Assembly: GCF_963506605.1 (NCBI RefSeq) | Contig: NC_083281.1 | Coordinates: forward strand, 22,940,001 to 23,004,000 | Origin: Zootoca vivipara | Lineage: Eukaryota | Reading direction: 5' to 3' | Length of the DNA: 64,000 nucleotides | Part shown: positions 7,508 through 55,200 of the stretch, piece by piece | Position numbering within the stretch: position 1 is the first letter of the stretch | Layout of the letters: each line of letters starts with the position of its first letter | The notes under the pieces: model-generated | What the model was told of the DNA's origin: nothing | The model's input: the letters and a program-made list of their open reading frames with translations, nothing else | The model's database searches: none | Program-made: the position numbers and the translations under genes

Positions 7508-7539
<32 letters not shown>

Positions 7540-8434: not shown

Positions 8435-8438
<4 letters not shown>

Positions 8439-30927: not shown

Positions 30928-33900
30928 ATGAAGTTTCAGTTGTCCCTTGTGATCTTCATATTCTGCCTTGGCGCAGGTAAGTCTCAGGTGTATCTGGCTG
31001 CATGTGCACATTGTGTGATGTGGGAACTGAGTGGGTTGGTCTCTAGAGAGCATCTCTTGGGCCAAGCCCTGCTAACTCCAGCAAGGCTTGCACAGAGGGC
31101 AATTCAGGTGGATGGGGACTAAAATGTCTGAAAGATATGCAGCTATGTAATATATTGCAATTAATTTTCTAGCCCTCTAGAAGTGGACTTTTGTGGTACT
31201 TAGATCACAGGGGAAGGGGCAGAATAGCTTTATCCCCATTACCTTTTGTGTTGTCTCGCTTAGGCTGAAATCCTATATACATTGAAATGAGAGTATGTCC
31301 CATTGAACTCAATAGGACTTCCTGTGTCACCAGCTATAGGAGGGGGTCATAAATATGGCTAAAACTCGTGGGCTGGAGAAAGGGGCTGTTGGGTTTTATT
31401 AAGGGCTCCTCAATTCTGGCTCTCCCCACTCACAACAAAATTTGAGCTTTCAAATTTAGTTTGCAAAAGCCACAGTGAATTTGTTCAACCGCCATATAGC
31501 TAACTTTACAATGCAATCATATGCATGTTACTTTTTTTCTTTTCCCGAAGTAGCACTTACAGTGCTTCCACTTACAGTGCATAAGATTGAAGCCGTCGTT
31601 GAGCCCAGATCCCACCGAGATCAGAGGGGTGGGGTTGAAACATTAGTCGAAGCAGAAGTGGTGGTTGGTTTGCATTGGACTGGTAGGGCAGAAGGCAAGG
31701 AGCCCAACAGTAGGTGGCGCTAGAGCCCAATACAGGAAGAGTCAGAGGCAATGACAGGCAGAGGCAACTAAGTCTGCTTTTGTCCATACCTTTCTTCCTT
31801 CTTAGAGGAATTTGAGACTAAGGAGGAAGAAACTGACAAGCAGTTCAGCTCTCTAGACTGGTTGTACCCTCCGTCTTACCCAGAGCCCTGAAACTGTCCT
31901 CCCTTCCTCCTTACTGTACATCCCATTCCTCCAAATGCCACTTTTAACCCAGTTCCACCTGCCTCTTCCCCCAGTTCCTCCCTTCGCTTCCCCCCCTGTC
32001 CATGGAAGACTACAACTGTCACACGCACACAGGGACCTTTCTTCCTCTCCAAGTCACTTACTACAGATATGGATCATCCAACTTTTTCTTCCTGCCCCTC
32101 TTCCTTTCCCCACCTTTAGAACCTTGGGAGACAGCCCATGAAAGCAGGGTGATGGCAGACCGGTGCAAATATTGTATAAAGAGAAATGTGTCCCTTCAGA
32201 TGCCACAAGCTTATACCGCGATGAAATCAGTTACTGTACCTATATGAACAAGCTACTACTGTACTAGCTATTCTTATGACTTAACATCTCAAAAGCTGGA
32301 AGTGGCCTCTCTGGGCCTCTGAGAGGGCCTGAGCACCCCCACTGCAGGTTAATGTAGCATGGAAAAAGCAGACACTGTCTTTGTGTCTTTCTGCAGCCGA
32401 CAGCTTGACATGCCAGAAGTGCTTGAGCAAGAATGGGAAGTGTGCACAGAACGAAGTGGAGGTTTGTGGCCAGTCTCAAGACGCTTGCTTCATTGAGACC
32501 AAGGACTACGCTGGTTGTAAGTACATACCCTCCATCTTTCCTCCAGTGAAAATAGGGATTTCCCATTCAATACTAATACTAATACTAATAATTGTTTATT
32601 TATACCCCACCCACCTGACTGGGTTGTTCCAGCCACTCTGGGCAGCTTTCAACATATAAACATAATAAAAAAATGTTAAACATTTTTTAAAAGAAAACCC
32701 TTCCCTATAGAGGGCTGCCTTCAGATGCCTTCTAAAGGTTGTATAGTTACTTGGCTTGGGGATCGCATCACCCCATGTCCTCCAACATTTCTCCAATGAA
32801 AATAAGGACATGGTGGCGCTGTGGGTTAAACCACAGAGCCTAGGGCATGCCAATCAGAAGGTCGGCGGTTCGAATCCCCGCAATGGGGTGAGCTCCCGTT
32901 GCTCGGTCCCAGCTCCTGCCAACCTAGCAGTTTGAAAGCATGTCAAAGTGCAAGTAGATAAATACGTACCCATAATTTAAATACTTGCTATAACATAAAA
33001 AATCCCTGTACTTTAAAGTATATCTCATCACAGAGGTGAAAATTGACATGGGGACCTGTGCACCTGCCAGACTGCTCACCAGCGGTGGGGAATTTCAAGG
33101 CCCTACTTATTCTTCTTCTTTGAGTTTATTTACAAAATGATTTGCACTGGACCTGGACCAGACATAACATCCTTTGCATATCTAAAATGATGCTTGCAAT
33201 AGTGCCCTGCTCTGGCAATGGGTTAACTCCTTTCTTTGATCTTCTGTTTGCAGTGGATGCAGGAACGGTGAAACTGGGCTGCGGCGACTCGAATTTGTGC
33301 CGCCGCTATCAGAAAGGGAACAGGGGATCTTTAAGCTGGTCGATGTATTGTTGCTCCTTCGATCTATGCCAGCCTCTGACACGTGATGGTATGTGGTACA
33401 GAATGACCGCTCCCTGCATTAACTGGGGGGTGGTGGCTTTTGTGTGGTCACACGCAGCCCCCCCGGAGACGACTAGACCCCCGTCAAGGTAGCCGGCTTC
33501 GCTGTCCCCCCCCCAAGCTGGATACCTGGAGGTTCCCGCCTAGCCTCGTCGATTAGCCAAACCCGGCTGGGGGGGGGGCCTTGCCAAGGGAGTTGGCCAG
33601 GTAGAGTTAGGACCGCCCACACTCACAATAGAGGGTGTGTCAGGTGTCATTATTCCTCCCGGGGGTCGCCTGGGGCTTGGGGGGTCTCAGCCTGTCCACG
33701 CAAATGGTGCATGCACATGTTGATGTGAACAGAATTTAGCTGTGAGGCTATGTTGGGGGCAGTGATAAACACTTTCATGAAAAAATCACCTCAGTGCTTT
33801 GCCAGTACAGTCATACCTCAGTTTAAGTATGCCTCGGTTTGAGTATTTTTGGTTTAAGTACTCCGCGAACCCGTCTGGAACGGATTAATCCACTTTCCAT

Positions 33901-36900
33901 TTCTTTCAATGGGAAAGTTCGCTTCAGGTTAAGTACAGACTTCCGGAACCAATTGTGTTTCTAAACCGAGGTACCACTGTAACAAACAAACAAACAAACA
34001 AACAAACAAACAAACAAACAAACAAAAATAAATAAGCCTATTCAACTAATTAGTCCTGCTAGTGGACGTCCATGCGAGGACTTCTGCTAGCAGAGTGGGG
34101 CTTCCCTCTCCTCTCCCCTCGTGTGCCCCCTGAAATTGGCTTGGAGCTTGGGGGGTGGGGGAGAGACCCTCAGAATAATATGCAGGGGCAGGAGAGGGAA
34201 TAATGTTCTGTCAGGGGGAGCTGGAATAATAATATAATAATAATTTATAATAATGATATAATATAATGATTTATACCCCACCCATCTGGCTGAGTCTCCC
34301 CAGCCACTCTGGGCGGCTCCCAATCGAACATTAAAACAATACAGCATTAAATATTAAAAGCTTCCCTAAACAGGGCTGCCTTCAGATATCTTTTAAAATT
34401 AGGATAGCTGCTTATTTCCTTGACATTTGATGGAAGGGTGTCCACAGGGTGGGTGCTGCTACCGAGAAGGCCCTCTGTCTGGTTCCCTGTAACCTCGCAA
34501 TGAGGGAACCGCCAGAAGGCGCTCGGAATACTTGTGTTGATGGAAAATTTCCTTAATGAATTCCTAATAATAAAAAGTTGTTGTTGTTGTTATTTTGTTC
34601 TACTTTTTGCACAAGTGTCTCAAAGCAACACACCAATCAGCGTAAAGCAACCTATACAGTAAATGGAAAACAAAACAATTGAAAGCCGAAACCTAATGTG
34701 TTGTATCCGATGCCAGTCCTACTCTGAGTAGACACGCTGAAATTAATGGAGAACTTGCAACCCAACCTCTCCATCCCCCTAACATGCTGTAGGTCTGGCC
34801 ACCACAGAACAGCTCCCCAAGGAAAAAGAAACCGATCACCAACTGCTGCAAAGAAAAAGGTTAACCCTGAAAAGTTATCAGTGTTGGTGCCCGGCAAGCC
34901 TTCATGGGGTTAGCATTCCTTTTTTAAAATTTTTTTAAAAATAGACTTTATTAGAAAGTTTTAAAAAGGTATACACACACTAGAAAATTTAAAGTAACTT
35001 AATAACATAAGATAACTTAGCAACTTAAATAGCATAGCATAACAAAGGTAACATAAATAACCTAACTGCATATTTAAGCCACCCAACATAAATTAATCAA
35101 CATAAATAAACAAATCAAGGTTGATCTAAATAGATTAACTCAATCAAACTACAAATAATAAACAAGATCAACTTAGATAAGCATAACATAACGTAACATA
35201 ACATGACATAACATAACATAACATAACAACATAACGTAATATAACATAACAAAAAAAGAAAAAGAAAATTATCCCCAGATCAGATCTTAACACATGGGCC
35301 TATCTCCATGAAATCCATTCATTTTAGATTAAAATTGGCTTCCAATCGCCAATATATCGCTTCCCTTACTATTGTTTTCCTCTTTAGTTTGCTTTCCCTC
35401 TTATTAAATCCAACTGAATTATTCCTACATGTTTTCTCTATTCCAGACAAATCACTAGCTCTGTTTTGATATTTTCTTTTTAAAAATACTCTTCCACGTA
35501 TCTCCATTCTGTTTTTATTCTCTGTTTTGATATGTTCCTAATTACCGCCGTCATTCTTGCTAGGTTCATGAACTCTACTACTTTAATTTGCCACTCTTGG
35601 ATTGTTGGTATTTCTGTTCCTTTCCATTTCTGAGCTAATACTAATCTCACCGCGGCACACGCATATAAGAAAATATTAATTCTATCTCTAGGTATATTTT
35701 CTGGGATTAGGCTTAGTAGAAAATATTCAGGTTTCTTTTCAAACGTAATTTTTATCATTCTCTTCATTTTTTCATATATATCATTCCAAAATTTATATAT
35801 TTTTTTACATTCCCACCAACAGTGAAAATACGTACCAGTTTTTTCCTGGCACTTCCAGCATTCTTTTGTTTCTGTCTTGTAGATTTTAGCTAGTTTTTCT
35901 GGCGTCAGGTGCCATCTATATACAAGCTTCATCATGTTTTCTTTGATTCCTGAACACGCTGTAAATCTCATTGTCGATCTCCACAATTTATCCCACTGCG
36001 TTTTATAAATTGGTCTTCCTACATCCTGAGCCCATTTTGTCATCACAGATTTTATCTCCTCGTCTTTTAATTCCCATTCTAACAAAAATTTATACATCTT
36101 AGACAATGATTTAGCCGTATTATCAATCAAAATTTCTTGTAATTTAGATTTCCCCTCATTAAATCCTATTTCTTTATGTTTTTTAAATAAACTTTGTATT
36201 TGTAGGTAATGTAGCCAGCTCATGGGGTTAGCATTCCATAGACTACAGAAAAGGCCTATTCTCTCATCATCACACATCATCTGCCAGAGGGAACACACAG
36301 AGAAGGGCCTCCAATTAGGGGATGTGACAGAGCCGGCCCACCCATGAGGCAGGGTGAAGAGTCCGCCTCAGGTGGCAGAAGTGCAAGAGGCGGCATTCTG
36401 CCCTCCCCACCTCTTCTGCTGCCAAGAGGGAGGTGTTACAGCGCACAGTGTTGCTGCTTATCTTCCCCAGGTGGAATGCTCTGAGGAGCACCCTGGCTCC
36501 TGCTGAGTTTGGTGACAGCCAGGGTGTTCCTGCACGCCATGTTGCTGATCAGCTGACCCCTCCGGGGGGGGGGGGAGGAGCCAAATGGCAATGCTCTGAG
36601 GAGTGCTCTGGCTTTTGCCAAGTTTGCTGAGAGCTGGGAAGAGGCGGCAGAAGTGGTGGGCATATGGGTGAGAGGGGGCGGTAGGCGGCAATTCCCATTT
36701 TGCCTCAGGTGGTGAAATGGACTGGAATCTGATGATCTGTGTCTCTCTCCCTGCTACTCACTGTTGCTTCCAACAGTTCACGGAAATGGATCAAAGAATG
36801 GAGTGCAGTGTCAAACCTGCATCGGGAGCGCAGCTGAATGTGGCCGCAATGCGCCCACAGGGCCATGCTATGGGAGTGAAGACCACTGTGTGCAGATCTC

Positions 36901-39900
36901 CCAGCGCTTCCTGCCAGGTATTGCCAAGTGGGTACCAAAGCATTCAAAGCACAGAGGCACGGGGATAGGAGAGACTAAGGCATCGCTAAGGGTGTGATGG
37001 TCACTAGCCAATAGGTGCAGGGGAACCTGTGCAACCGCAACCTGCAGAGTAATCACCGTTGCAATGGATGCACATGGTGTTGGTGGTGGGAAAACGTATT
37101 TCAAGGTTTTCTGAGTTGCTCTCCTATGTTTTTAAGACTGTGTATGTTTTGCAATAAAATACAATTGCAGAGCTGGTCTTTCTAGGCTAGACAGGCAAAG
37201 CACTCCAAAAACCTTTAGAGGCAACAGTTCCTTTAATTAAATGCTATCTGTTTTTTTGTTCTGACCATGTTACTTCTTCCTGCTGGATTCGTGATAAATT
37301 GCCTCTTGTTTGAGGGCTTCTGTTTCCTGCTTGGTGGGTCAGTAGGTTAATTACTAATTTCCTTGCATATTTTAATACTCCTTTTATAGTGAAAGAGAGC
37401 TATTTAGCCATAAAGGAAAGGAAAGGAAAAAACACGAAGGAAATAATTTGCTACTCTCCTCCGCTACAGTGGGGAACGGAAACTGACTAATATGGGGCAA
37501 TTAAGGGGCAATGCACCACTAACCCATATCCATGCAATAAAATGAGTGGAGCCAGCTAACTGGAAACTTCAAATTACAAGAGACCTTTGCTGAAAGGGGC
37601 TTACTTTTGAGTAGACATAGATGGATCTTGGCCATTGGCATCGCTGGATAATATAGAACTATATTAAGTTCTGTGTGAAATCTGTTTTAATTGCGCTTCC
37701 AGCTAATTGCAAAAAAAGGAACAGTGCCTCAATGCTAAAGGGCAGTGGATACTGTGGAAGCTATTCCACAGAACAGCAAAATAACACCCGCCATGCAAAT
37801 TTAAACATACACAGTGTATGGAGAAGCTGTAATATGTATTTAGTGAGATAATTTGTTGTTGTTTAGTCGTTTAGTCGTGTCCGACTCTTCGTGACCCCAT
37901 GGACCATAGCACGCCAGGCACTCCTGTCTTGCACTCCCTCCCGCAGTTTGGTCAAACTCATGTTCGTAGCTTCGAGAACACTGTCCAACCATCTTGTCCT
38001 CTGTCGTCCCCTTCTCCTAGTGCCCTCAATCTTTCCCAACATCAGGGTCTTTTCCAAGGATTCTTCTCTTCTCATGAGGTGGCCAAAGTATTGGAGCCTC
38101 AGCTTCACAATCTGTCCTTCCAGGGAGCACTCAGGGCTGATTTCCTTAAGAATGGATAGGTTTGATCTTCTTGCAGTCCATGGGACTCTCAAGAGTCCCA
38201 TGGACTGCAAGTTGGAGTTTAAAAGTTGGAGTTAAAAGTGGAGTAGTGTCCATTGGAAAACAATCTACAGTACTAGCTGCATTTCTTAGATCCAAAAATG
38301 GTCCTGTTGTGCATGGACATCACCTGATGATTGCTTCTCCAGGTGAAGAAACAGAACCCATCATAAAGGGGTGTGGAGGCAGTTCTTTTAAGGACACATT
38401 GGTGGCGTACCAGATCGGGAGAGATTTTGCCTTTGTTGAGCAAAAGGTCTGCAGCAGTTCCAACTGCAACAACAGGAGCTTCCCAGGTAAATGACAATTG
38501 CCGTGCTCTGATAACCTTCTGTCAGGTAGGTATAGGATCCTGCCTGTATGCCAAATAATAACAATCTAGGACACAGTCTGCAGGGAAGTTCCCCAGCACA
38601 AGCCCCATGGGAATGAACAGGAGAGCTGCAGGAGAGTCGTCGCGCCTCTTCCAAATTCATATTTTGAAAAATAGGAAATTCACGGAATGTTTAATTTCGG
38701 TAAAAATTGGATTTCACTGTTGTACTCATTTTTCAGAAGATAGAGGTCCTGTCTTGCGCCCAAGATTGAGGGGGTCCAGCGCATGGCACAAATGGGTGCA
38801 CATTGCATGCACTATTCTGTAAGGGATGCTTTAGCTGAGATTCCTGCATTGGCAGGGGGTTGGACTAGGTGACCCGTGGGCTCCTTTCCAACTCTATGAT
38901 TCTATGACTTCATGTGTATGATGTTGCATCATTGGAGGGGGGAGTCTGAGTGCGGAGCCCGGCGCAGAGGAGAGGGCCAGCAGAACTCCACTGGTGCAGC
39001 ATTGCGTAAAACTCAGCATTTCTGTAAGTCGCCTTGAGGCATTTTGGAGAAAAGTGACTTAAGAAATTGAATAGATCATCATCACTAAAGTCTCTCCCCC
39101 CCTTTTCTTTACTCTACAGTCATCACTTCCGGACAGCCCAATGGGCTGCAATGCTACACCTGCCAGGAGTCTGGGCATGGGGAGTGCACTCAGGACAGAC
39201 TGCAAGTTTTAAATTGCACAGGAGTCATGGATCAGTGTGTACATGTCTTCGACAGAGGTAAGGAAGCGGCAAGGGTGCGTATACAGAGGTGGCTGAGGAC
39301 TGGGATGCATGCCTGTTAGCCCGATCAGATGCTAAAGAGGGCACAGCTCCTTATCTCAAAGAGTTACAGAGAAGCATGGATCAGAAAAACTGCTGCTACA
39401 GGAATCCATCCTTTGGGACACACTGCTTGAGGGCCATGTGAAATTACCTTAAACAAGGAGGTTATTTGTTACATCTTTGTTCTGGCTTTGATCCCTCCCA
39501 ACCAGCATCTACAGTGACAGTGGTACCTCGGTTTTTTATTGTCTCGGAAGCTGAATGCCGAGTTTTGAATGCCAAAAACCCAGAAGTAAATGCTTCCGTT
39601 TTTGAACGCGCCTTGGAAGTCGAATGGCTTCCGCTGAGTTTTTTTCTCCATTGAATTTGCAGGCTGCCCTTTGCGCCTCGGTTTTCGAACACTTCAGAAG
39701 TCGAACGATCTTCCGGAACGGATTATGTTTGAAAACCGAGGGACCACTGTGCCAGGAGCAATTAATTCTGCAGCACCTCTCCGTCAGGTAGGAAATAACT
39801 CCTGACAGAGAGGATGCAGCCAAGTGACCTGTTCTCAGGGAAGGTGCCCCATTGCTTCTCTGTGTGAGTCGCTGTTCTTGGTGTTCCCTCTTTTAGGCAC

Positions 39901-42328
39901 ATCTGAACTCTGTTATTCATGCAGACACACAAGGAGCTGGGTTCCTTTGAGGACAGGAGATTCTTGCTTTTGTACCATCTCCACACCATAGACTTGAAAG
40001 TGGTTTTAACAACCAACCCTTTTACAGTGGTACCTCAGGTTACAGACAACTCAGGTTACATACCCCGGTAACCCAGAAATAGTACCTCGGGTTAAGAACT
40101 TTGCTTTAGGATGAGAACAGAAATTGTGCTGTGGTGGCGCAGTGGCAGCGGGAGGCCCCATTAGCTAAAGTGGTACCTCAGGTTAAGAAGAGTTTCAGGT
40201 TAAGAACGGACCTCCAGAACGAATTAAGTTCTTAACCTGAACTTGCAGGGAACCAGGCAGAGGGCCTTCTCGGTGGTGGCGCCTACCCTGTGGAACACCC
40301 TCCCATCAGATGTCAAAGAGAAAAACAGCTACCAGATTTTTAGACGACACCTGAAGGCAGCCCTGTTTAGGGAGGCTTTTAATGTTTAATTGATTATTTT
40401 ATTTCATTTTTCTGTTGGAAGCCGCCCAGAGTGGCTGGGGAAAACACTCCGGGAATTGTAGTGCTGTGAGGGTGGTAGGAGGGGGGGTCTCCTAACAATT
40501 CTCAGTACCCGTAAAAAACTACAGTTCCCTGGATTTTCGGCGGGTGAGGGGGAAACCTTGATAGTTAAAGTGTTATAAAAGTGTGGGTAAGCAAACATTC
40601 TGCAGTCTTCCTGTTTGGATGGATTAAGTGTGCCTCTCCAGCTTCAGAAATGTAGAAAGTGCCAAAGCAAAGGGTTTAGGTCGCCCTGATCCCAGATAAG
40701 TTTCCCACAGTGAAGCCTGCAGATTCTGGTCAATTTCACGCCCCCTGAAGACATCCTTTTAATTGCACCTCTGTATTGATTTGTGCTCCTGATGCTATCA
40801 AGGTGTTTGCACACGCTATCCCGTTTTCAATAGATTGAGCACACACTGCTTCACTTCCAATGAGTGCCTATCTCCGTAACTATTTCTGCCACAAATGTTT
40901 TTGTCCTGCTTTGGTTGAGCTTTAAAGCCCCTCCGGACAGCAAGGATGTGGCAGCATTGGGGAGGCATCACAGGGCAAATCCACCACAGATGCACCATCC
41001 TTGTGTTAAGAACATGTTGCAGAATACACCTGCAATAAAACACCGTTTCTTGGAGGGACCCTCAATTTCTCACTCATTCTTTACGTGTAGGAAATGGCTT
41101 AATATAAGAGGACCATTTCGCCCTCTATTGGCCATAGGTGGAATGTGATGCAGGTTTTACGCTGCTCTAAAATGCAGTGGGGAGCCATCAGTACCTTGGT
41201 TTTCGAACAGCTTAGTTCCTGAAAGTTTTGGCTCCCGAACATCACAAACCCGGACGTGACTGTTCCAGTTTGCGAACTATTTTTGGCAGTGCTTCCCCCC
41301 CCAAAAAAAATGTTTAGGGGTACTCTCCTTTCCCTACTCATATTGAAATACTTCATTCATTATAGACATAAGAAGAATTTATCTTGATCTGATGTAACCT
41401 ATATTACTGTTTTTACTTTTTGGATGAATTTTTGTTCATTATTTCTTTTTAATTTCAATAAAGCATGAAAGAAAGAAAGAAATACTGCCCCTCGATGAGG
41501 CCAAAGTTAGATTCACAAAATGTTTAGGGGTATGTGTCCCTCCGCATCCCCCAAGAAAAAAAGCACTGATTTTTGGAAGCTGAACAGCCGACGAGGCTTC
41601 TGAGGTTTCTGATTGGCTGCAGGAGATTCCTGCAGCCAATCAGAAGCTGCACTTTGGTTTTCAAATGTTTTGGAAGTCGAACGACTTTTGGAACAGATTC
41701 CGTTCGACTTCCAAGGTACGACTGTATCTCTATTTGGCCTTCATAGAATCATAGAATTCTAAAGTTGGAAGGGACCACAAGGGTCATTTAGTCCAACCCC
41801 CCCCGCGCCGCAATGCAGAAATTTTCTCATTGTGGGACTCGAACCCATGACCCTGAGGTTAAGAGTCTCAAGCTCTGCAGAACTATCCCCAGGCTACGTC
41901 TCTCTCTCTTTGGCTTGTCCTTGAACTCTTATAATGGAGAGGGTTGTTTAAGTGTGGGTAGAAACTACTGTAGCCTACCCTACAAGGCGAAGCTTCCATT
42001 AGTTGCCCCGCCCACTTTCCCCTCTGGCTCCACCCACTGCTGCCATGCGACCCTCAGAAGATTGCCCAGAAGGGAATGTGGCCCTCGAAAAATCCCCAAA
42101 ACCTGTCTTCCTTCTTTTCCAGAGAACAGAACTGTGACCTTTCAGAAAGGCTGTGCCACCGAGACCATGTGCAGCAGCTACAAGGATATCTATTCCAAAC
42201 TGATGGGGCTGGATTCCTTTGTCGAGTGTTGCAAAACGTCCCTCTGCAACCAAGCCAGAGAGCATTCTGGTCCAGAAATGCTACTAATGGTGTCTGCTTC
42301 TGCCTGGTGGCTGGCATGGATGGCTTGA
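30928..42328 (+). CDS. uPAR/PLAUR-like GPI-anchored protein with three Ly6/uPAR domains (gene A), 7 exons, ~310 aa
   Basis: Exons 30928-30976 (signal peptide MKFQLSLVIFIFCLGA), 32397-32516, 33254-33388, 36777-36917, 38343-38486, 39120-39257 and 42123-42328. All introns are phase 1 GT-AG; 933 nt open. LU cysteine patterns are present (10/8/10 Cys) and the C-terminus is hydrophobic (MLLMVSASAWWLAWMA). The exon plan is that of PLAUR. Confidence 0.88.
32808..32970 (+). mobile_element. Sauria SINE 5' portion
   Basis: tRNA-like head GGTGGCGCTGTGGGTTAAACC...GGTTCGAATCCC, then GGGGTGAGCTCCCG...GTGCAAGTAGATAAATA. Confidence 0.8.
33809..33979. mobile_element. Tc1/pogo-type MITE followed by (AAAC)n
   Basis: TA-CAGTCATACCTC...GAGGTACCACTG-TA. 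Confidence 0.8.
34268..34525 (-). mobile_element. L2 3' fragment
   Basis: Same family as 7545-7830. Confidence 0.75.
34920..36225 (-). mobile_element. 5'-truncated L1/Tx1-clade LINE (ORF2 C-terminus plus 3' UTR)
   Basis: An uninterrupted frame encodes RWHLTPEKL...CWKCQEKTGTYFHCWWEC (CCHC zinc knuckle). The 3' UTR has (GTTAT)n, AATAAA and an A-rich tail at ~34920-34950. Confidence 0.88.
37854..38195 (-). mobile_element. BovB (RTE) LINE 3' fragment
   Basis: Encodes VPWTARRSNLSILKEISPECSLEGQIVKLRLQYFGHLMRR...RGRQRTRWLD; (CAA)n tail. Confidence 0.92.
39518..39749. mobile_element. Tc1/pogo-type MITE
   Basis: CAGTGGTACCTCGG...CCGAGGGACCACTG termini. Confidence 0.7.
40025..40441. mobile_element. 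Truncated Tc1/pogo MITE joined to an L2 3' fragment
   Basis: 40025-40240 matches the 14485 MITE family; 40241-40441 is L2 on the + strand. Confidence 0.7.
41741..41890 (-). mobile_element. tRNA(Lys)-derived SINE with CR1-type tail
   Basis: Minus strand: GAGACTCTTAACCTCAGGGTCATGGGTTCGAGTCCCAC...GGTCCCTTCCAAC...ATTCTATGATTCTATG. Confidence 0.75.
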
Positions 42329-43241
42329 CAATAATGGCAGCTGTCTAGGTGAGCCTTCAAAAAAGGATCGGGCCAGTCTTTGAAGGTTGGTTGTATACAT
42401 GGGAAGAGGTCTCGCTGGCTACTGGGGCTCCTTTATCTGCTTGGAAGTAGGTGGCACTGAAGCACTGCTCCCCTACTGTCTATATGCCATGCCAAGACTG
42501 GATTACTGCAATGTGCAGCATGTGGGGCTTTCCTTGTGCTTGATCTGGAAGCTGCAGTGAGTGCAGAATGCTGCGGCAAAAGACTTAAGACCCCGGTCAG
42601 CAGAGGACACCTTTGTTCAGAGGCCTGCAGTGGTTGCCAATTTGCTGCTGGGCCAAGTTCAAAGAGTTACTATTGGTATATAAAGCCCTTAACAAATTGG
42701 AACAAATTGGAACCAGTTTACCTGTGAAATCGTCTTACCCCACATCTTGTATGCCTGCTTGACTGCTTCGATTACAGATGCCACAAAATATTTGTAAGAA
42801 ATCGACCTTTTTCTGTGGCAGCATCCCTGCCTATTGACATCAGCTAGCAGCCTTCATTGTTCTATTTTCAGTGCCTGCTAAGACCCTTTTTGCTTAAGCA
42901 AGCCTACCCAGATATGTAGATATGTGTTTTAATCTTTTTTTTAGCTCATTGTTGATTTTATTATTTTTTGAATATTTTAAATAGCTGTTTTTACTGATAA
43001 TTTTTTTTTAACAATCAAGTGGTATGGAAATTTTATGAACTAAATAAACAATAAATAAAACATACAATGTCAAAATAGGGTGCTTTGGGAGGGGCGGCTC
43101 CCACACCTACAGTTCACATGCAATGCCGTTTCTTGGCTAGAGTGGGCATTTGATTTCTAAGCGTCTCATCTTCTCACTGCCTGCATGAGGGACATCCATG
43201 CAGGCTCACAGATACAAGTCTCAAATGTGGCTGTGTTAAGG

Positions 43242-43508
43242 GTTGTTGTTGTTTAGTCGTTTAGCCATGTCCGACTCTTCGTGACCCCATGAACCAGAGC
43301 ATACCAGGCACTCCTGTCTTGCACTGCCTCCCGCAGTTTGGTCAGACTCATGTTGGTAGCTTCGAGAACACTGTCCAACCATCTCGTCCTCTGTCGTCCC
43401 CTTCTCCTAGTGCCCTCAATCTTTCCCAACATCAGGGTCTTTTCCAGGGAGTCTTCTCTTCTCATGAGGTGGCCAAAGTATTGGAGCTTCAGCTTCACGA
43501 TCTGTCCT
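43242..43508 (-). mobile_element. BovB (RTE) LINE 3' fragment
   Basis: Encodes GQIVKLKLQYFGHLMRREDSLEKTLMLGKIEG...; nearly identical to the 37.9-kb copy. Confidence 0.92.
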
Positions 43509-44167
43509 TGTGTTAAGGGACACCTCAACAAAAACCAAAGCCTGTAGGTTGGGAAGACAAAATATTACCTTTTCCAGGTTCACAATCATTCTCATGATTT
43601 CTGCTGGATGTTTCCACACTATATTTCTATTGGATGATTCTGCACCATGGGAAGGACGGTTTGCTTAACTCCAGATTATTAGAAATCTGGAAAGTTGCTA
43701 TTCCACAGGCCAAAAGCAGAACAGCAGATGTGTCATCCACATCTAGAAGGACCCGCTGTTCAATATTGCCAACAATTAAGAGATTTAGATCCTGATAAAA
43801 AAAAAACCTTCAAGTTGTCAGAGAGCACCATTCTGAGTGCAGCGTTGCTTGTCATTACGGCAAGTCCCGTTTTTTGGAGAGGCTTCAACCATTCAGCCCC
43901 CCCCCCCCCCGGAACTGAAGGCCACTTGAAAGAAGGAACACTGGTGGCAGTGTTTACTTTTACCTCTTATTAAACAAGTTGCTTTAGTTTTTAATTTTGC
44001 TGCTCTAAAACCCTGCAAAACCAGTTTGGCCACAGTGACAGTGAGCCTAAGGAATTATGCATATATATTATGGCAAGCGAAACCTGACGGAGACGCCAGC
44101 CCAATAAATTAGTTCTGCAAGTGTTTGTGTGTATGAGGTAAGATATAAGTGTGTGTGCGTGCACGTG

Positions 44168-44171
44168 CACA

Positions 44172-44229
<58 letters not shown>
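44168..44229. repeat. Compound (CA)n(GA)n microsatellite
   Basis: Seen directly. Confidence 0.9.
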
Positions 44230-44234
<5 letters not shown>

Positions 44235-44967
44235 TGTGTGTGTGGAACACGGGAGGTTGCTTATGCCACAAGACAAACTATTGACTTATCTGTGTTTTCT
44301 GTGGCTCTGACTGGCAGCAGTTATCTAGGGCTTCAGGTAAGCATAGCTGCCAAGTTTTCCCTTTTCTCGTGAGGAAGCCTATTCAGCATAAGGGAATTTC
44401 CCTTAAAAAAAGAGAGAACTTGGCAGCTATGGGTAAGTGACTTTCCCAACTCCACCTGGAGATGCCAGGAATTGAACCTGCGATATTTTGTATGCAAAGT
44501 AGATGCTCAGTCACTGAGCTGCAGCCCTTACATTTCTTAAATGTGCGCGCGCACGCACAGGCCTGCTCCATCCCTCCTAACATTTGGCAGTGGGAAATAA
44601 TTACGACTTGTTTGTGTTAGCAAGCCACTGGTGGATGAAGAGGAGTGAGAGGGGAGCACACCGCCCCCAGCAGCGCGATCCCTGCCTGCTCTCCGCCCCC
44701 CCCCCCCGGTGCCGGAGCATGAAGCTCCGCCACTGTAGCAAGCCAAGACAATGATGTGTTCCTATGGGATCCGATGCCAGCTTTTGGCAAAGACCGTCAG
44801 AAGTATTAGTTTCAAAATAGGCTCACTTACGGCTACAAATGCACACCTCCCTCCTGTTTAGCATTTGCTTTGCATGCAGAAGGTCTCAGGTTCAGTCCTT
44901 GCCATTTCTCGGTAGGTCTGGGAGAAAATATTGCCTGAGATCCCGGACAGCTGCTGCAGAATTATCA

Positions 44968-45112
44968 AGTTATAGAACTGCAGCGTTGGAAGGGACCATG
45001 AAGATCATCTCGTCCAACTGCCTGCAATGCAGGAATTTTTTTGCCCAACATGGGGCTTGAACCCACAACGCTGAGATTAAGAGTCTCATGCTCTACTGGC
45101 TGAGCTATTCCA
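44968..45112 (-). mobile_element. tRNA(Lys)-derived SINE with CR1-type tail
   Basis: Minus strand: GGAATAGCTCAGCCAGTAGAGCATGAGACTCTTAATCTCAG...GGTTCAAGCCCC...GGTCCCTTCCAAC. Confidence 0.75.
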
Positions 45113-47723
45113 ACATACTAAGCTAGATGGATCAGTAATTTGACTCAATATAAAGCAGCTTCCTATATTCCTATTTTATTAAATGATGTCTCTCTCCCCC
45201 ACTCCCACCCAAAAGGCATGTTTTTGGATTTTCAAAACCCAAAGCGCACAGGGACTCTCCTAAATCTCTGGCGGAGCTCTTTCCCTGCCTTGTCACTTGG
45301 GATCCTTTCTAACTGGCCGAGAGAGAAGAATGATGGTAAGGAGAGAGACCCAAGGGCCAGAAAGAGACATGGCAGGTTGCATTCCACACACACCCTGGGT
45401 GTGAGGTTCTCCTCCCCAGCAATAGGACATAAGGAGAGTTTTGCTGGATCAAACCAAAGGCCCATCTAATCCATTGCTGTTCTCACAGTGCCCAACCAGA
45501 TGCCTATGGGGAGCCAGGAAGCCGGGCCTGAGCACAACTGCATTCTCCGCACCTGTGCATCTCAGAAGCTGGCTTTCAGAGGCATACTGTGGGTGTAGAA
45601 CAGTCACCTTGGCTAGCAGCCATTCTTAAAAGGGTGAGAGAAGTTGGTTGGGAGTTCCTGCGTAACAAACCCACTTTGGGTTGTGCAAGAAGGAAAGTGA
45701 TGGGAAGATGTGCTGGAAAGTGTCTGACACTTCCTGTGATGCAACGGCATCTCACCTCCGCACAGAAAGGAGGCTCATTAAGCAGCCAACACAGTCTCCA
45801 ACCTCCCTGCAAACAAATCAGGGTGGATGATCGACGAACAACTTCTCTGGAAGTTCGGCACCTAACCACGGCGTAGTCTTTGTGCAAGCAAGACAGGGAA
45901 GAGCCTTAGTGCATTGTCTCCCAACCCCCTTTGGAAGCTGCTCCTTCGCTTACAGATGTGGATTAAAACCATCAGGGCTGAGCTGCAGCCAAACAGCATG
46001 TTTCATAAAAAGGCTGTACCCTCCCATGATGCAAGGTAATTAGGATAATAATGAGGCACAGCAACCTACTGGGTTTGGGGGAGGGCCCTCGTTAACTCTG
46101 GAAGATGAAAAAATGACTGTGGGAACTGTGCCGAGAGCTTGGAATCAGAGTGGTGTTTTTTGGCAAAGCAGAGCGGAGTTGGCTCCGGAACAGTCGCTGG
46201 CATCTGGTTATTTTTAGGGCGGTTTCAGCCCTTCCTCCTCAAAGGAGGAAGGAATGCAGGGAAGTGGGAAACTGAGTCACTCCTGAAGAGAAGAGGATGG
46301 TATCTCCAGCCAGAAAGCCTTGCATCTCAAAGCAGAGTCCAAGGTAAGAGAGAGACCTTGGTTAGGGAGGAACCTAGGGCACCGCTTCCCCCAAAGAATT
46401 GTGGGAACTGTAGTTTCTTAAGGGTTCTGAGAGCTGCTAGGAGGCCCTTTATTCCTCTCACAGAGCTACAATTCCCAGAGTCCTCTGTGAAGATGGGTAT
46501 GGTCTCTTTGGGAGGGGAACAGTTCTCAGTACCCTTAATCGACGACAGCTCCCTAAATGCTTTGGGGGAAGCCATGGCTAATTTAAAGCTCTATCAAAGC
46601 AATGTAAACGTATGGTGTGAATGTGGCCCTTGTTTGCCCTTCTTGATCTTAACAAGGAACTATTGACAAGCTTATGAGGACCCCCACCCCCCAGTTCTGA
46701 GGAACAGACACAGAAAACTCTAAACCTTCAAAGCCAAGATCCACCCGTCAACTTGCAATATAGCAACTGTTTTAAATATTGTTACTCCATGTGCTGTTTT
46801 GGGCTTAACTGGTCACCCCCACCCCCCTTTCTCTCTGGGTGCTTCCAGATACCGTAGGTATCTATCATGGGGGCACTTCAAGTGTGCAACACTTTTTAAA
46901 AAACAGCATCTGCAGGGCATTGTTGGCAATTTAATTTGAATTTACCCTTTCCGGGAGAAATCAAGCAAGGGACCCTTGAGGCTGGCGTCTTACTGTGGAT
47001 GTATTCTGCAACACAGTCTTGACACAACAATAGTGCATTCATGCTGAATTTATTATTGCTGTCCAGAAGGGCTATGGTGCAACAAATAGCAGAAGGAAAG
47101 CAAACCAGAACATTTGTGGTGTAAAAAGTTATGGGATTTCACTAGGAAGTTGCGGGCTAGGCACTGATTGGATAGGAAGCTGTATGATCACCCCAAAACC
47201 TTTGCAGGCACAACCAGTGTTGAAATCACGATTGCGCATGACCATCCCAATAGCAACATGAGCGCAAGTTGTCATGCATGTGCATGGATATCCTGGGACC
47301 TTCAGTTAAAAAGAAACAAACTGTTGCCAACACCCTACTCGCAATATGTGAATGGCCCTTTTACTATAAGTTGTCTTAAGCCATTTTTAATGTTGCATGT
47401 TAAATTATTGCAAATCATCACCATCCCCTGCCTGGAAGTGACCTCTGGGATCATCCAGAATTCTGCTTGTCGTGTCTCTTCCCCCCTGGGAAAAACCACT
47501 CTTTACTGCTCAACATTTGCTCCGATTCTGCGCTAAAGAGAGGGCTTTCCCGGGAAAGCAGCAGGGCAAACAAAAAACTGCTCAGACACATGCCTATAAA
47601 GCACGGGACAATTGGAGAACTACTTGGACCCAAGCTTTCAAGGCATGGGACAAGCAGGAGTGTGGATGCGCCCTTAGTCAGCCTCCTTTCTGTATTTCGC
47701 CATCCATCTTCATTCATTTATGC

Positions 47724-47859
47724 CAGGCACCCCCAAACTTGGCCCTCCAGATGTTTTAGAACTACAATTCCCATCATCCTTGACCACTGGTCCTGTTAGC
47801 TAGGGATGGTGGGAGTTGTAGTTCCAAAACATCTGGAGGGCCGAGTTTGGGGATGCCTG
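47724..47859. mobile_element. hAT MITE with 8-bp TSD
   Basis: CAGGCACCCC...GGGGATGCCTG; TSD ATTTATGC. Confidence 0.88.
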
Positions 47860-48064
47860 ATTTATGCAGTTATATTTTTCCCCTGTCCTCCCTCCTGTTT
47901 TATCATTTCAACAACCCTATGGGGTAGGCTGGGTTGAAAGTGAGAATCTGGCCCAACATCACCAAATTTGCTTTCAGGATGAGCAGGAATTTGAACCTGG
48001 ATTGCCCTGGGACTCCCCAATCCTCCCCACTTTTCCTTTGTCCCAAAGATGCTTTTATGATGTA

Positions 48065-48314
48065 CAGTCGTACCTTGGTTTGCAAACGCCTTGCGAGTCA
48101 AACATTTTGGCTCCCAAATGCCACAAACTCGGAAGTGATTGTTGCAGTCTGCAAACGTTCTTTGGAACCCGAACATCGGGCGCGGCTTCTGTGGCTTCTG
48201 ATTGGCTGCAGGAGCTTCCTGCAGCCAATCGGAAGCCATGCCTTGGTTTCCGAATGTTTTGGAAGTCAAACGGACTTCCAGAACGGACTCCGTTTGACTT
48301 CCGAGGTACCATTG
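48065..48314. mobile_element. Tc1/pogo-type MITE
   Basis: TA-CAGTCGTACCTTGG...CCGAGGTACCATTG-TA. Related copies lie at ~20876, 41190-41724, 53503-53742, 55694-55943 and 59607-59851. Confidence 0.8.
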
Positions 48315-49213
48315 TATTGGGATGACCCATCTTCAGTCAGATTGCAGCTCATTTGCCTGTGCAACCCCTCATCCGAATAATAATAATAATAATAATAATA
48401 TTATTTCTACCCCATCCATCTGGGGTTATAACGAATGTTAGAAAGTTTTTTTTTTGGGGTGGGGAAAAGTAGGGGGGAAATCTTCCAGGGAGAGTGTATT
48501 TAAAGCCTTGCCTTTTCTGGCCAAACTAGAGACACTGCAAGGTTGGAGCTTGCAATCTGCTACTGCCGAAGATGGTCCTGCCAAGAAACAGACCAGCCGC
48601 TGGCGTGAAATCTGCAGAAATGAATTAGAAATTAATCTCCCTGGATCCGAGGCTGGAACTAACCCAGCTGTGCCACTGATTTCCAAGCCATTTATTTGGT
48701 TTTCTGCCTGCTTATTCCCCTCCCTCCCTCCCAACTTTCTGAAATGAGTTGAGAGAGGCAGCCGCTACAAAAAAGGGAAATACAAAACGTGACGTTAAAA
48801 GTCCTTTTCACACTCAAGGGGGTGGCTCAGGGGCCATGAGAGATGGCCTGGTTTTTCCATCACATAATCTTATTAAAGCTCCCGGAGCAAGTAATCCCGA
48901 GTGGTTGCACCGGACGTGGGTGGAAATTTAAGGAAGCAAACAGCTTGACCTCTTGTGGGCTGCGTCCTTTTGAGTTGTTGTGGGAGGGTTGGCGAAGTTC
49001 ATTGAAACCTGGCAGGGCTAAGAAGGACGGCCTTATGGGTAGGAAGAGTTCCAGAAGTCCTGCTCCCATCACGTTACCAAAGAAAGACACACCTGGGTGA
49101 TGCAGGTGGGGCACTGCTAACCTGGGACAGAGCAATTGCCTTTCTGCGGCAGCTGATCTAAAGGAGTTTGGCATTTGGGACGGGGGCAGACGGGCGAAGA
49201 AGGCATTTGTGGT

Positions 49214-52200
49214 TTAGTTCAGGGCTATGAACAGTGGGGCTGCCAGCAGGGCGATGAGGATGCCTTTGCCTCTCCTTTCACCCTGGCCTGGCGCTCCATT
49301 GCAGAAGGGGCCCTGGCAGCAGGTCACGTAGCTGACGGGAAGCTTGGGCAGCAGTGTTCCATAGAAGACCATATCCTGGCAGAGCTGCTGGTTGGCGCAG
49401 CCAGCTCGGAGGGTGGCGCCGCGGACGTAATCTGCGTTGGAAGAGAGGAGAGGAGGGAAGGGAGTTGCATTGCCAATTATCTTCCCAGGACGAGGGATCA
49501 GATCATATGAGTAGGGATAGGAGTGTTGGTCAATTTAATTTCTCTCTGTTACTCATTCCCCCAATCTTAAATTCAGTTCTTACATTTCTGCTGCCTATAT
49601 ATACTGGTATATATGGTATATATGATATATAGGTCGTTTATTATCATGCTGTGTATTAATTGGTGTGCATGTATGCTTACGTTCTTAAACCATTTGGGCT
49701 TTCCAGTGCTGCAAGTAAGCCATCTCGAGAACTGACCTTGGCTAGTACCGTGATTGGTACACGTGATTCTGTTTCTAGTGTATCTGAAGAAGTGTGCATG
49801 CACACGAAAGCTCATACCAAAATATAAACTTAGTTGGTCTTTAAGGTGCTACTGAAGGAATTTTTTTATTTTGGTACATGTGAGTTGGACCTAATATACA
49901 TGAATATATATATTCATGGAAATTCACCAGCATTTCAGGGCAATTTTCTCCTAACAAAAACATTGTTCCAGGCATTTTTTTTACTAATGTGACACATTTT
50001 AGGCAAGCAATTCTCTACAATCTAATGCATTTTTGTATCCAATGATCAAGGTGTCTCCCCTGACAGGTAAGTATCCAATGCATTTTATAGCTTCATTTTA
50101 ATGCACACTCTCCCCTAATTCATGTATTCTTATAAACATTACTTGATTGGAGAACTGCACTGCAAAATTCAGATAAGTATGAATTTTGTAGGATGGCTGT
50201 GTTTCGGTTTGCATATTGTTTCAGAAAGTGCGGATTTGATTGATTCGGCTTTAAATGCATCCTGAATCAAATTTCTCATCCATCCTTTGTCTTGAATCCT
50301 AATCATGCATTCCTTGTGTTTGGGGAAAATGAACTTACTCGTAGCTTCCTGTAACCAGAAGCTGGAAGGGCCAGGATGTGACAGGACTGTGAGGAAGGGC
50401 CGTAACTCATCAGCTTTGAATGCTGAAGGTCTCAGGTTCAACCTTTGACATCTTCAGGTAGAGCTGGGAATGTCTCCTGGCTGCCCCATGGGCTCTCCTG
50501 GGCTCTGTACCTGCCTGGCATGATTCAGAATGGGCCCATTTCCCTGCTGTGAAACCCTTTGACTCCCATGTCCCCCACTGGATAAGGTTGATTTGTCTCC
50601 CCGATTGCTCCTGATGTAGATCTTCACTCACACTTCCTTCCCTGGGCAGGGGGTGGGGAGTACCATTTTGTGGTTTGCTTCAGGTGCCAAAATATCTTGG
50701 GCTGGCCCTGGCTGTGGGATCATCATCACCATAATAAGTTATTATTTATACTTCGCCCATCTGGCTGGGTTTCCCCAGCCGCTCTGGTTGGCTTCCAACA
50801 GAATATTAAAAACACGATAAAACATCAAACATTAAAACCTAAACAGGGCTGCCTTCAGATGTATTCTAAAATTCAGGTAGTTGTTTATCTCTTTGACATC
50901 TGACGGGAGGGCCCTCTCCCTGGTTCTCTGTAACCTCACCTCTCACAGTGAGGGAATCACCAGAAGGCCCCCGGAGCTGGACGTGATTGTCCGGGCTGAA
51001 TGATGGGGGTGGAGATGCTCCTTCAGGTATACTGGGCCAAGGTAGTTTATTATCATGCTGTGTATTAATTGGTGTGCATGTATGCTTGCATTCTTAAACC
51101 ATTTGGGCTTTCCAGTGCTGCAAGTAAGCCATCTTGAGAACTGACCTTGGCTAGTACCGTGATTGGTACATGTGAGGTGGACCTCAGAAGGTATTTTAGG
51201 ATCACAACAAAGAGGAAACCAACCTGGCCCCATCCACTAGCAAGTGAAGGCACACCTGCTCTGGTGCTTGCTTTCCTTTACCCTCCCCATTCCCTTTTCC
51301 TTTCGTATCATGCCTATCAGATTGTGTGCCTGTGGGCAGGGACAGCCCTATCTTTTAATATAGATACAACACTTAGAAAATGTTAGGCACTTTAGAAGTG
51401 TAAGATAATTATCATTACTACCACCTGAGGAGGCACTGCCTACTCAAAAGCCTCCTCCACCTATTGCCATAAATCTTGCACCATCTCTTACCTATGACAT
51501 TCATGCAATGGTCCATGTTTCCCATGCAGTTCATGAGTTGCAGATTCTCTGCGCTGCATTCATCATTTCCTGCATCTAGGCAGCTGTAACACACCAGCCC
51601 GTTGAGTTCCCTCACGGAAAATCCTGAAAGGTAGGAGACAAAAGTCTTTTTCAGTAAGGGCCAAATTAGGTGTGACAATTAGCATGATTTTGTTTATTTG
51701 CTCTGCAAATAGCAGCTGTTAGGAGAGCTGAGCAGCCTCTGGACTGTGGGAATGAGGAGTTTAACTCTGTCTCTTCCAGCCCCAACACAAACCTCATCTC
51801 CCCACAGCTGCTATTTGCATTTTTTGAGGCCAGAATGACATGTGGGACAAAATTAGGAACCAGAAATTCCTGGATTCCATTTCTGACACAGTCATACAGA
51901 GAGAGTGAGAGTGGAGGAGTTTTGATGTAATGCAGGGGCAAATTCATGGCTATTATTCAGGGATGACCATATACTATTTCCAGGATCAGAGATGCTGGGG
52001 GGGGGGGAGGGGGAGAGAGAGCGAGAGCGAGAGAGAGAGAGAGCGAGAGAGAGAGCAAGAGAGAGAGAGAGCGAAAGCTATTGTGTTGGATTCTTGCCTG
52101 TGTGCTTACTTGTAGGGGGGTAGTTAATCCACATTTGGGGAAACTGCTTTGCCCCCCAAGTTTTCTGGCCCTTGTGGGATACAAATTTATTATTATTATT

Positions 52201-55200
52201 AAATATAATAACAAATATTGCCCAGTCTTGTTCACAGATATTTACTGCCTAATAATGCTGCTTTTTGTGAGTGGGATATTTTTATATGGGGTGGGGGGAA
52301 TATGGACGGACGGACATGTGAGCCAAAAGGACTTTAAAAATACATCTATGCAATCCAGGGATATTCTTTTTTAAAAAAACTGGACTTCTGAGTTTTTGCA
52401 ATTTTCAAATTTTGGTTTCAAAGTCCTCAGTGATGCATGAATATACGGGGATGAAATTTTAAACACAAAGCACCCAAAGTTTCATTTTAGTTTTGGCATG
52501 CACATTTGAGTCGAAATTGGCTGAAGACTCCTGCCGCTCCAGTTTGGGTCATCCCAGTAAACCTGCAACCCAGAGTTACCTGTGAAAGAGCTGTTGTTGC
52601 ACCTGGAACCTTCACAGACACGGATGGCCACGTAGCTGATTTTGCCTCCTATGCTGTATGCCAAGAGCGTTTCCTCTTTGGGGTAATTCCCACAGCCTTT
52701 GATGATGGGCTCCACCAGACCTGTTCCTGTGGAAACAGAGGAGGGTGTCAAAGATCATTGCCAATGGCTGTTGGGGAGTGTATTTGAGTGAAGGGCTGGG
52801 TTATTCTGTATGCCAAGCACACTATAGAGGAGCTCAATGGCATTCAGGCTGCATTCGCAGTGAGTTGACAACCACGCAGGACTCCTTGATTTTCTCCTGC
52901 AGTGCAATGCACACTTACAACCAGCCAGGGGATGCCTCCGCCTCTCAATGGCTCTGGTTCCACTTTCCATTGGTCTCCTCTCCTTCTGCTCCTCCAGTTC
53001 CAGTAGGCACCACCAGCACACCGCCAGTTCACATGGGACACTGGAGAGGCCAGGCCATTGCCCCACATGAACTGAGAGTGCGCCCTAGAATCCACCTGAG
53101 ATCTTTTGCAATGTACACATGGCTTCTGCCACCAAAACCAGCAGGGGTTCTTAAGCAGACACACCTCTGTTTCTATCAGAGGTGGCTAAGCATTTTTGGG
53201 GCCAAGGGCTGGGGCCCGCTGCCCCCATGCCAAAGTGGGCAGGGCCAACATACCAAAGTGCAAAGTGAGTGTGGCTTTCCCTTCCTTTATTTCTACACTC
53301 TGGGGAGTCGGGGAATCGCAAAAACCTTTCGGCATCCCAGAACCACAGCTGAGGATCTACAGAAGTGCTTGGTAAAACTTGTACACACACACAATTATTA
53401 TTTTTTTAACGGCAAATTTTGGGAGTCCCACAAAAACAAACAAACACCTTTTGGCATCACAGTGGGGTACCGATGGGGGCAGTTTAGTAATTATTATTAT
53501 TACAGTGGAACCTTGGTTCTTGAACATAATCTGTTCCGGAAGTCCTTTCGACTCCCGGAATGTTCGAAAACCAAGACGCGGCTTCTGATTGGTGCAGCTG
53601 CCCCGGCTACAATGGCCAACAACCACATTGGGTGTTCGGCTTCCAAAGTTTTTTCAAAAACTGGAACACTTACTTCCGGGTTTCCGGCGTCCGGGAGCCG
53701 ATTTGTTCATCAACTAAGCCCTTTGAGAACCAAGGTTCCACTGTATTATTATTTTAAATGGATTTTTCCCCCCAGCAGGGCTTGAGGAGGTACAAAAAGC
53801 CTTTTGACATCAAAGCGGGGGAACCATAGAAGCAGTTATAGCTTTGGGGCAACTGTGGGGGGGGGGCTGAATTTTGAAAGAAGTGACAAATTGGAAGGGC
53901 ACAAAAACACCTCTCAGATAGTTTACCTGGCAGCCACTGGCGAGAGATTTCCACGCAGCGGTTCTCTTTACCCCTGCACTGGGCTGTGGGAATTCTGGTC
54001 CCATTACACTCCTCCAAACTGCCTATGCAACTGTAACACTCCACTCCGTTGCGTTCAGTGCTGTACGTGACTGTGGGAAGGCAAGAAAAAAGAAGGGTCA
54101 CCAATTCTGAGGCCCACGAGCACTGCTTGTGGAAGGCTTCAGTAAATAGCACCTCAAAATCTACATTCTGAGAGGCCCTCCTGGTGGTTGCACCTCCCTC
54201 AGGAGCTTGGGTGGCAGCAGTAGTCCAGAAGGTGGTCAAGGAGCCCATGCCAATGTTTAAAGCCCTAAAAACAATGTAGGCCCCAAATATCTAAAAGGCC
54301 ACTTCCTTTCACGCAGACCCTCTTGGTGGTTCCACCTCCCTCAGAGGTTTGGGGTGAGTGTGACCCGGCAGAGGGCCTTCTCTGCAGAAGTTCCTGAGTT
54401 GTGGAGTTCCCTCACCAGAGAGGTGTGGCTGGCACCTTCATTATACATATTTTGGTCATTTGCAGAGGACACTCGTGCTTGCATTGGCCTTTGACCCTTG
54501 ACAGATATATATATTTGGGACCCACCTTAATTTGTTTCAAACTGTTTTAAGTGTTGTTGTATTAAACGGCTGTGACCCATTTGGGGACTCCTGATCAAGG
54601 ATGGGTAATAAACCAAAATAACAATAAACATTTGACACCACTGACTGTCCCATACAGAGAGCAGGAGATAGGCCACATTCACACCATAAATCTAAAGCAT
54701 TATGATACCAGTTTAATCATCCAAGGCTTCTCCCACAGAATTCTGGGAGCTGTAGTTTGTTAAGGGTGCCGAGAGTTGTTAGGAGACTGCTATTTCCCTC
54801 CCTGAGCTACAGTTCCCAGAGTTTCCTGTGAAGAGGGAATGATGCTAGCTCTGTGAGGGAATCAAGGGTCACCTCTTGGCACTTTTAAATCACAGCTCCC
54901 AGAATTCTTTGGGTGAAGCCATGAAAGCAAAAAGCAGTATCATATTGCTTTAAATTATGGTGTGAACGTGGCCATAGTTAGTGGCTCATGAAAGTGAGCA
55001 AGGCAGCTCTTTCCAGTGTGTCGCACATGTCTCTGGAGAGCTCAGAGGTGTGATAATTTCCACTTCAGGGCTGACCATACTCCAGGGACTCTTACCATTG
55101 TAGGGGACATCGTTGCACAGGTCTTCGGAACAGCAGTAGATGCTTCGCGATACGAAGCCCCTGCGGGTGGAGAAGTAGGACTGGCAGTGCTGGGATGTGG

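Follow-up and report, generated by a model that had tools for sequence, protein, structure and literature searches.

The urokinase receptor uPAR, the product of PLAUR, has three Ly6/uPAR (LU) domains encoded by seven phase-1 exons, with a signal peptide in front and an anchor-like tail behind. Its domains I, II and III carry 8, 10 and 10 cysteines (8-10-10), the disulfide between Cys7 and Cys8 being absent from domain I. Restoring this 7-8 bond in uPAR domain I impairs binding of urokinase plasminogen activator (uPA), and in the available parts of the two reviews that report this, the bond is missing only from N-terminal domains (PMC6600238, PMC8417595). Other multi-LU proteins of the same gene cluster, C4.4A/LYPD3, Haldisin/LYPD5, TEX101 and CD177, have also lost it; they have two or four domains, and the loss is in the N-terminal one. 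A 10-8-10 class of three-LU proteins is tabulated, in the available part of Chana-Munoz 2019 (PMC6337849), from Python bivittatus (XP_007427343.1) and Alligator mississippiensis (XP_019342558.1), with a single gene in each of the two species and no function assigned; the lizards examined there yielded none. We analysed a stretch of 64,000 nucleotides from Zootoca vivipara (contig NC_083281.1, positions 22,940,001 to 23,004,000), hereafter the window, whose own numbering is used unless the contig is named. It contains two genes, A and B, for three-LU proteins in which, unlike in C4.4A and the other multi-LU proteins above, the 7-8 bond is missing from domain II.

Our explanation of the whole, to which we give a probability of about 0.65, is that A and B are paralogues within the 10-8-10 class, that their domain II lost the bond in place, and that both would be receptors held at the cell surface by glycosylphosphatidylinositol (GPI), for a ligand other than uPA.

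Two convergent genes for three-domain LU proteins

Gene A (+, 30928-42328) and gene B (-, 61017-49214) converge and have seven exons apiece. A phase-1 exon scan detected six LU half-domain exons per gene, with a signal-peptide exon upstream, and assembly from canonical AG/GT phase-1 exons gave open frames for products of 310 aa (A) and 318 aa (B). These are identical to the Zootoca vivipara RefSeq models XP_034977045.1 (A, 310/310) and XP_034976566.2 (B, 318/318). An earlier, sequence-only reading of the window had given the span 36777..54070, which takes in just exons 4-7 of either gene; the domain II peptides it quoted are located at 38366 (+) for A and 52700 (-) for B. The exons, and the AATAAA motifs beyond the last of them, are as follows.

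30928..30976 (+): gene A exon 1, signal peptide, ending in phase 1 and matching RefSeq XP_034977045.1 at its start
32397..32516 (+): gene A exon 2, first half of LU domain I, Cys1-5
33254..33388 (+): gene A exon 3, second half of LU domain I, Cys6-10, 7-8 pair present, Gln after Cys10
36777..36917 (+): gene A exon 4, first half of LU domain II, Cys1-5; spliced in contigs of two runs
38343..38486 (+): gene A exon 5, second half of LU domain II, only Cys6, 9 and 10; spliced in contigs of two runs
39120..39257 (+): gene A exon 6, first half of LU domain III; spliced in contigs of two runs
42123..42328 (+): gene A exon 7, second half of LU domain III, 26-residue GPI-signal-like tail and stop
43043 and 43050: AATAAA beyond gene A exon 7
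60969..61017 (-): gene B exon 1, signal peptide
57018..57146 (-): gene B exon 2, last part of the signal peptide and first half of LU domain I
55096..55233 (-): gene B exon 3, second half of LU domain I, 7-8 pair present
53927..54070 (-): gene B exon 4, first half of LU domain II
52580..52726 (-): gene B exon 5, second half of LU domain II, only Cys6, 9 and 10
51492..51623 (-): gene B exon 6, first half of LU domain III
49214..49431 (-): gene B exon 7, second half of LU domain III, 28-residue GPI-signal-like tail and stop
48691 (-): AATAAA beyond gene B exon 7

The two proteins share 125 of 305 residues and carry 4 and 6 N-glycosylation sequons. Each has three stretches matching PF00021 (54-55 bits, for a cut-off of 24.8), and with these domains and a three-finger fold both are members of the LU superfamily.

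Splicing of gene A was found in one contig from each of two runs, belonging to two studies: 36917 is joined to 38343, and 38486 to 39120, at GT..AG and with no exon between. This read support covers exons 4-6 of gene A, and the RNA origin of the two runs is a guess, as no matching run is recorded as RNA. A 1121-base assembly record encodes a complete 313-residue relative of gene B (P0014), which implies a spliced transcript of a B relative. A pseudogene or chance origin of A and B is ruled out by the open frames, the canonical splice sites and the conservation.

The 7-8 cysteine pair of domain II

In both A and B, domains I, II and III hold 10, 8 and 10 cysteines. The Cys7 and Cys8 sites of domain II read K (AAG, 38390) and V (GTC, 38447) in gene A, and E (GAG, 52676) and V (GTC, 52619) in gene B. 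We inspected 55 relatives (P0001-P0055), a redundant set that includes isoforms and near-identical cluster members. The domain II pattern was recognised in 50 squamate sequences, all of which lack a cysteine at both position 7 and position 8; of the remaining five, two are fragments that lack the segment, one is an odd model, and two are divergent sequences parsed as having an eight-cysteine domain II. The missing pair is thus no chance pattern, and the count reported for both genes by the sequence-only reading holds on models identical to those of RefSeq. That reading had also considered that transcripts might use other exons bringing Cys7 and Cys8 back. Exons 4, 5 and 6 are spliced directly in the gene A contigs, and no alternative exon restoring the pair was seen in the two contigs covering gene A domain II or in the 50 parsed relatives.

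Searches with the domain II exon and with full alignments detected relatives of A and B in lacertids, amphisbaenians, cordylids, skinks, geckos, agamids, iguanians, anguimorphs and snakes, and crocodilian relatives were present among representatives at 50% identity. Among the matches, of which 20 were looked up in the broader search, we recognised no 10-8-10 protein from turtle or tuatara, which does not establish their absence. Domain II is the most conserved domain, with identities outside cysteines of 67% among A proteins, 79% among B proteins, and 41% between A and B. The two are old squamate paralogues, each forming one clade.

Other positions vary as well. The Asn that follows the tenth cysteine is present in five of the six domains of A and B, gene A domain I having Gln. 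At this place in domain I, where Asn is held to be invariable, it is kept in 16/16 B rows, and 36 of 37 non-B rows have another residue (Gln, Glu, Leu, Arg, Lys or Val in the A family). The gene A orthologues of colubroid snakes (P0016, P0019) have also lost Cys2 and Cys3 of domain III, giving 10-8-8. An extra unpaired cysteine, which could permit dimers, is found in finger 3 of domain II in the gene B orthologues P0014 and P0017 (the skink Lerista).

Relation to uPAR and to the described 10-8-10 class

The RefSeq name of the Zootoca A model is "urokinase plasminogen activator surface receptor", and like uPAR, A and B have three LU domains, seven phase-1 exons, a signal peptide, an anchor-like tail (called by a heuristic) and a place in the same chromosome region. 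However, their domain I has all ten cysteines, they are about 25% identical to uPAR, and they form no joint clade with it. In a tree of the ectodomains of 27 proteins, computed with cysteine columns removed, the 10-8-10 proteins formed a single clade (100/100) in which A and B separate, and a clade of A and B with uPAR was rejected by the approximately unbiased (AU) test (p-AU 0.006). The proposal of a distinct three-LU subfamily, made from the window alone, is therefore upheld. A separate 8-10-10 uPAR orthologue lies about 1.0 Mb further on the same contig (24,024,582-24,033,679, -), so that A and B are paralogues and not the uPAR of the lizard. The contig also has an 8-10-10-long gene at about 24,065,000-24,072,000 (-).

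A and B share the cysteine pattern and the missing pair with the class of PMC6337849. By eye, the python sequence printed there is an orthologue of gene B; gene B matched 196 of 266 positions of the python model P0036, which has the same C-terminus as the printed sequence. In a domain tree of 82 rows, thinned from 113 and with mis-parsed and partial domains left out, alligator domain II grouped with that of A and B (97/80). The sequence-only reading had allowed that earlier documentation of a 10/8/10 pattern in reptile uPAR-like proteins would lower its novelty, and the python and alligator entries in the available part of PMC6337849 are such documentation: the observation is real, the cysteine class itself was already known, and the novelty is largely refuted. 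Compared with what that part describes, A and B are two paralogues across squamates, with anchor-like tails in 33 of 35 proteins. In the literature searched, PMC6337849 was the sole relevant paper combining "10-8-10" and "uPAR", no functional study of the class was found, and six RefSeq accessions of these proteins had no mention. What is added here is a likely origin by loss in place, a second old paralogue and a probable correction on GPI anchoring. The significance is modest: the class offers a comparison protein for uPAR structural biology, and no new system.

Origin of the missing bond

The second half of domain II had been likened to uPAR domain I, and phase-1 exon shuffling, or addition of an N-terminal domain to a two-domain unit, had been suggested. 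Part of this likeness is real. Cys6 and Cys9 of A and B domain II are 25 residues apart, as in uPAR domain I, and a two-sequence profile of the second half gave a weak PDB match to mouse uPAR 39-77 (E 1.8). The same 25-residue spacing is common to domain II of lungfish and amphibian proteins, which resemble the segment far better. In ungapped comparison, lungfish domain II has 12 identities over 32 non-cysteine positions with both genes, versus at most 7/34 for uPAR domain I, and its Cys7 and Cys8 fall on the sites that read K/E and V in A and B. When the second exon of domain II was scored with cysteines masked (15 A and B queries), the profile of nine lungfish and amphibian domain II halves gave a mean of 18.4 bits (5.3-26.5), for a shuffled maximum of 6.0, whereas the profile of seven uPAR domain I halves gave -1.2 bits, which is shuffle level. 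At the level of exons, then, this half of domain II is nearer to other domains II than to uPAR domain I.

The trees agree. In the domain tree, the domain I branch (26 rows, 95/90) and the domain III branch (27 rows, 100/98) both exclude A and B domain II, and A and B domain III nests among lungfish and amphibian domains III (99/99), apart from that of uPAR. Mammalian LYPD3, LYPD5, TEX101, CD177 and PINLYP, and the phospholipase A2 inhibitor gamma-PLI, are outside all trees. The closest non-squamate match over a single stretch is a lungfish protein, Protopterus XP_043937068.1 (E 2e-47). The uPAR-like proteins of lungfish (Protopterus, 10-10-10) and amphibians (Ambystoma, Spea and Pseudophryne, 10-10-10/11) have the domains II and III closest to those of A and B, in collinear order, but unlike A and B they retain Cys7 and Cys8 in domain II. 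From these comparisons the 7-8 bond was most likely lost in place and independently of uPAR, rather than through exon shuffling. We infer that the three domains descend collinearly and that the loss preceded the squamate-crocodilian split.

It seems to us highly improbable that domain II, in whole or in its second exon, was copied from uPAR domain I by shuffling, or that a C4.4A-type 8-10 unit had a domain added in front. Shuffling is mechanically possible as all exons are phase 1, but this phase is general among LU genes, according to the available part of PMC6600238. Besides the cysteine spacing and the weak match to mouse uPAR, the one test in its favour is a single-domain AU test (45 rows, 87 columns), in which a clade of A and B domain II with uPAR domain I was not rejected (p 0.18 and 0.26). 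Set against these are the masked scores, the ungapped ranking headed by lungfish and amphibian domain II, and both trees; as to a C4.4A-type unit, the modelled II-III pair fits uPAR II-III better than C4.4A.

Domain II appears to have lost the 7-8 pair in two further proteins, of the uPAR and long classes: P0100 (axolotl) and P0094 (the frog Hyperolius). The axolotl case is already published as 8-8-10 (PMC6337849).

Predicted fold and membrane anchor

AlphaFold models of A and B (predicted local distance difference test, pLDDT, 82 and 79) match uPAR best, domain for domain (Z 12-14), and a PDB match to uPAR (E 2e-24) points to the same fold. Residues 110-289 of the gene A model superpose on uPAR 92-276 with Z 12.4 and a root-mean-square deviation (rmsd) of 4.0 over 173 residues; for C4.4A, the values are Z 8.3-8.9 and rmsd 7.6-8.2. 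Domains II and III are predicted to pack as in uPAR. Over the whole chain, Foldseek gave rmsd 13-14 and template modelling (TM) scores of about 0.4 versus uPAR, and the position of domain I is therefore unlike that in closed uPAR, though models of this kind place domains relative to one another with uncertainty. In domains I and III the models show a short helix in finger 3, whereas in domain II this finger is a hairpin without a break. Lacking the 7-8 bond, domain II would have a long uninterrupted hairpin as its third finger, and domain I, which keeps its bond, may be stiffer than that of uPAR.

C-terminal tails of 25-32 residues with a hydrophobic end were found in 33 of 35 squamate proteins, using a hydropathy heuristic. 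The 35 were chosen from the 55 relatives by omitting isoform duplicates and most fragments. These tails start with Asn right after the last cysteine, pass through a short polar stretch and finish in a run of hydrophobic residues. Of the two exceptions, a Sceloporus model has a tail of 182 residues and a python B model has 11 extra residues; two partial crocodilian-type models are also hydrophobic at their end.

Several points weigh against the explanation of A and B as in-place 10-8-10 paralogues with a GPI anchor. Concerning descent, a clade joining them to uPAR and the long class is rejected by a small margin in the ectodomain tree (p 0.045), and the branch that unites the 10-8-10 proteins with the lungfish and amphibian group has a support of just 87/78. 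The non-significant single-domain AU test counts here too, and masked pairwise scores of the first half of domain II fail to tell domain II and domain III apart. Concerning structure, the AlphaFold models may echo solved uPAR structures. Concerning expression, about 6% of the raw reads of two further runs gave no depth on gene A exons 4-6. Finally, the 10-8-10 proteins are said, in the available part of PMC6337849, to be without a GPI signal. Given the hydrophobic tails in 33/35 proteins, this remark appears to reflect the two gene models used there, and is likely a model artefact.

Possible ligands

As GPI-anchored surface receptors, A and B would use their three LU domains to hold an extracellular protein. 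The second finger of domain II aligns with residues 130-140 of uPAR, its ligand-loading loop, and a ligand may contact domain II at this position, through its conserved fingers 2 and 3. A ligand other than uPA is plausible. uPA itself is an unlikely one, because domain I retains the 7-8 bond that hampers its binding and because a true uPAR exists.

A and B could instead be back-up urokinase receptors, the flexibility of the cavity having moved from domain I to domain II. They do have three LU domains in a uPAR-like fold, the gene A loop aligns with the loading loop as just said, and the growth-factor domain of uPA is intact in several squamates (PMC6337849, Table 3, in the part available). Yet domain I has the very bond that impairs uPA binding when it is restored in uPAR, and the rejected clade, the 8-10-10 uPAR of the same genome and the identity of about 25% all speak against such a role, which we regard as unlikely.

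Another proposal is that A and B are phospholipase A2 inhibitors like snake gamma-PLI or PINLYP, surface-bound or shed. Gamma-PLIs have two LU domains and are secreted. This two-domain secreted layout of gamma-PLI and PINLYP is not matched by A and B, with three domains and an anchor-like tail, and the class also occurs in alligator and geckos. The Podarcis muralis orthologue of A is automatically named "phospholipase A2 inhibitor NAI-like", but nearly all other named orthologues are uPAR-like. PINLYP does belong to the same gene cluster (PMC6337849). Taken together, we see little chance of an inhibitor function.

A role without soluble ligand, as epithelial surface or adhesion proteins in the manner of C4.4A and Haldisin in stratified epithelia, would fit what is reported of paralogues in the same gene cluster, which are markers of epidermal layers and whose knock-out has mild effects (PMC6600238, available part). 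It would also fit the 4 and 6 N-glycosylation sequons, and an expression that looks restricted, exon depth being seen in two of four runs compared. The domain II fingers, however, are strongly conserved in A as in B, which speaks for a defined partner. We consider this role very unlikely.

A bolder version of the receptor reading is that a second, independent loss of the 7-8 bond, in domain II and in reptiles, built a differently hinged three-domain cavity, and that the anchored A and B, retained by squamates from their base onward, act as receptors of a conserved protease or growth-factor-like ligand missing in mammals and birds. We hold this to be doubtful. If true, it would provide a natural experiment on loss of the 7-8 bond as a general route to a multi-domain binding cavity.

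Neighbouring genes and related proteins

Upstream of gene A, the window contains a zinc-finger frame and four frames of the interferon-inducible GTPase family PF05049.

4597-5181 (+): C2H2 zinc-finger frame
11208-12380 (-): PF05049 interferon-inducible GTPase frame
15005-15712 (-): PF05049 interferon-inducible GTPase frame
19884-20477 (+): PF05049 interferon-inducible GTPase frame
23242-24441 (+): PF05049 interferon-inducible GTPase frame

The four GTPase frames are apparently two two-part genes pointing away from each other. This neighbourhood of zinc-finger and GTPase genes presumably recalls the human IRGQ-ZNF576-PLAUR-IRGC region. A gecko model (P0050) fuses a PF05049 gene with gene A, likely as an annotation artefact.

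Just past the end of the window, at about 23,006,700-23,014,000 of the contig, there is another three-LU gene (+), the third, oriented head to head to gene B; in the piece examined there, a candidate signal exon is at 218-284 and the gene at 2712-9960 (+). Its domain I is without the 7-8 pair, its domain II has ten cysteines and one behind, and its domain III has eleven; both domain II and domain III resemble domain III types. Orthologues are alligator XP_059575103 and Crotalus KAL7981041. The cysteine pattern of this gene is absent from Table 3 of PMC6337849, in the part available, as is that of an amphibian three-LU group (P0063, P0088, P0203 and P0205, of which P0063, P0203 and P0205 are from caecilian and salamanders). 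In this group domain I is without Cys2 and Cys3, and the tail after domain III is short, so the proteins are possibly secreted. Finally, another stretch examined outside the window has an open frame of 877 codons (-) at its position 4815, with a retrotransposon-like look.

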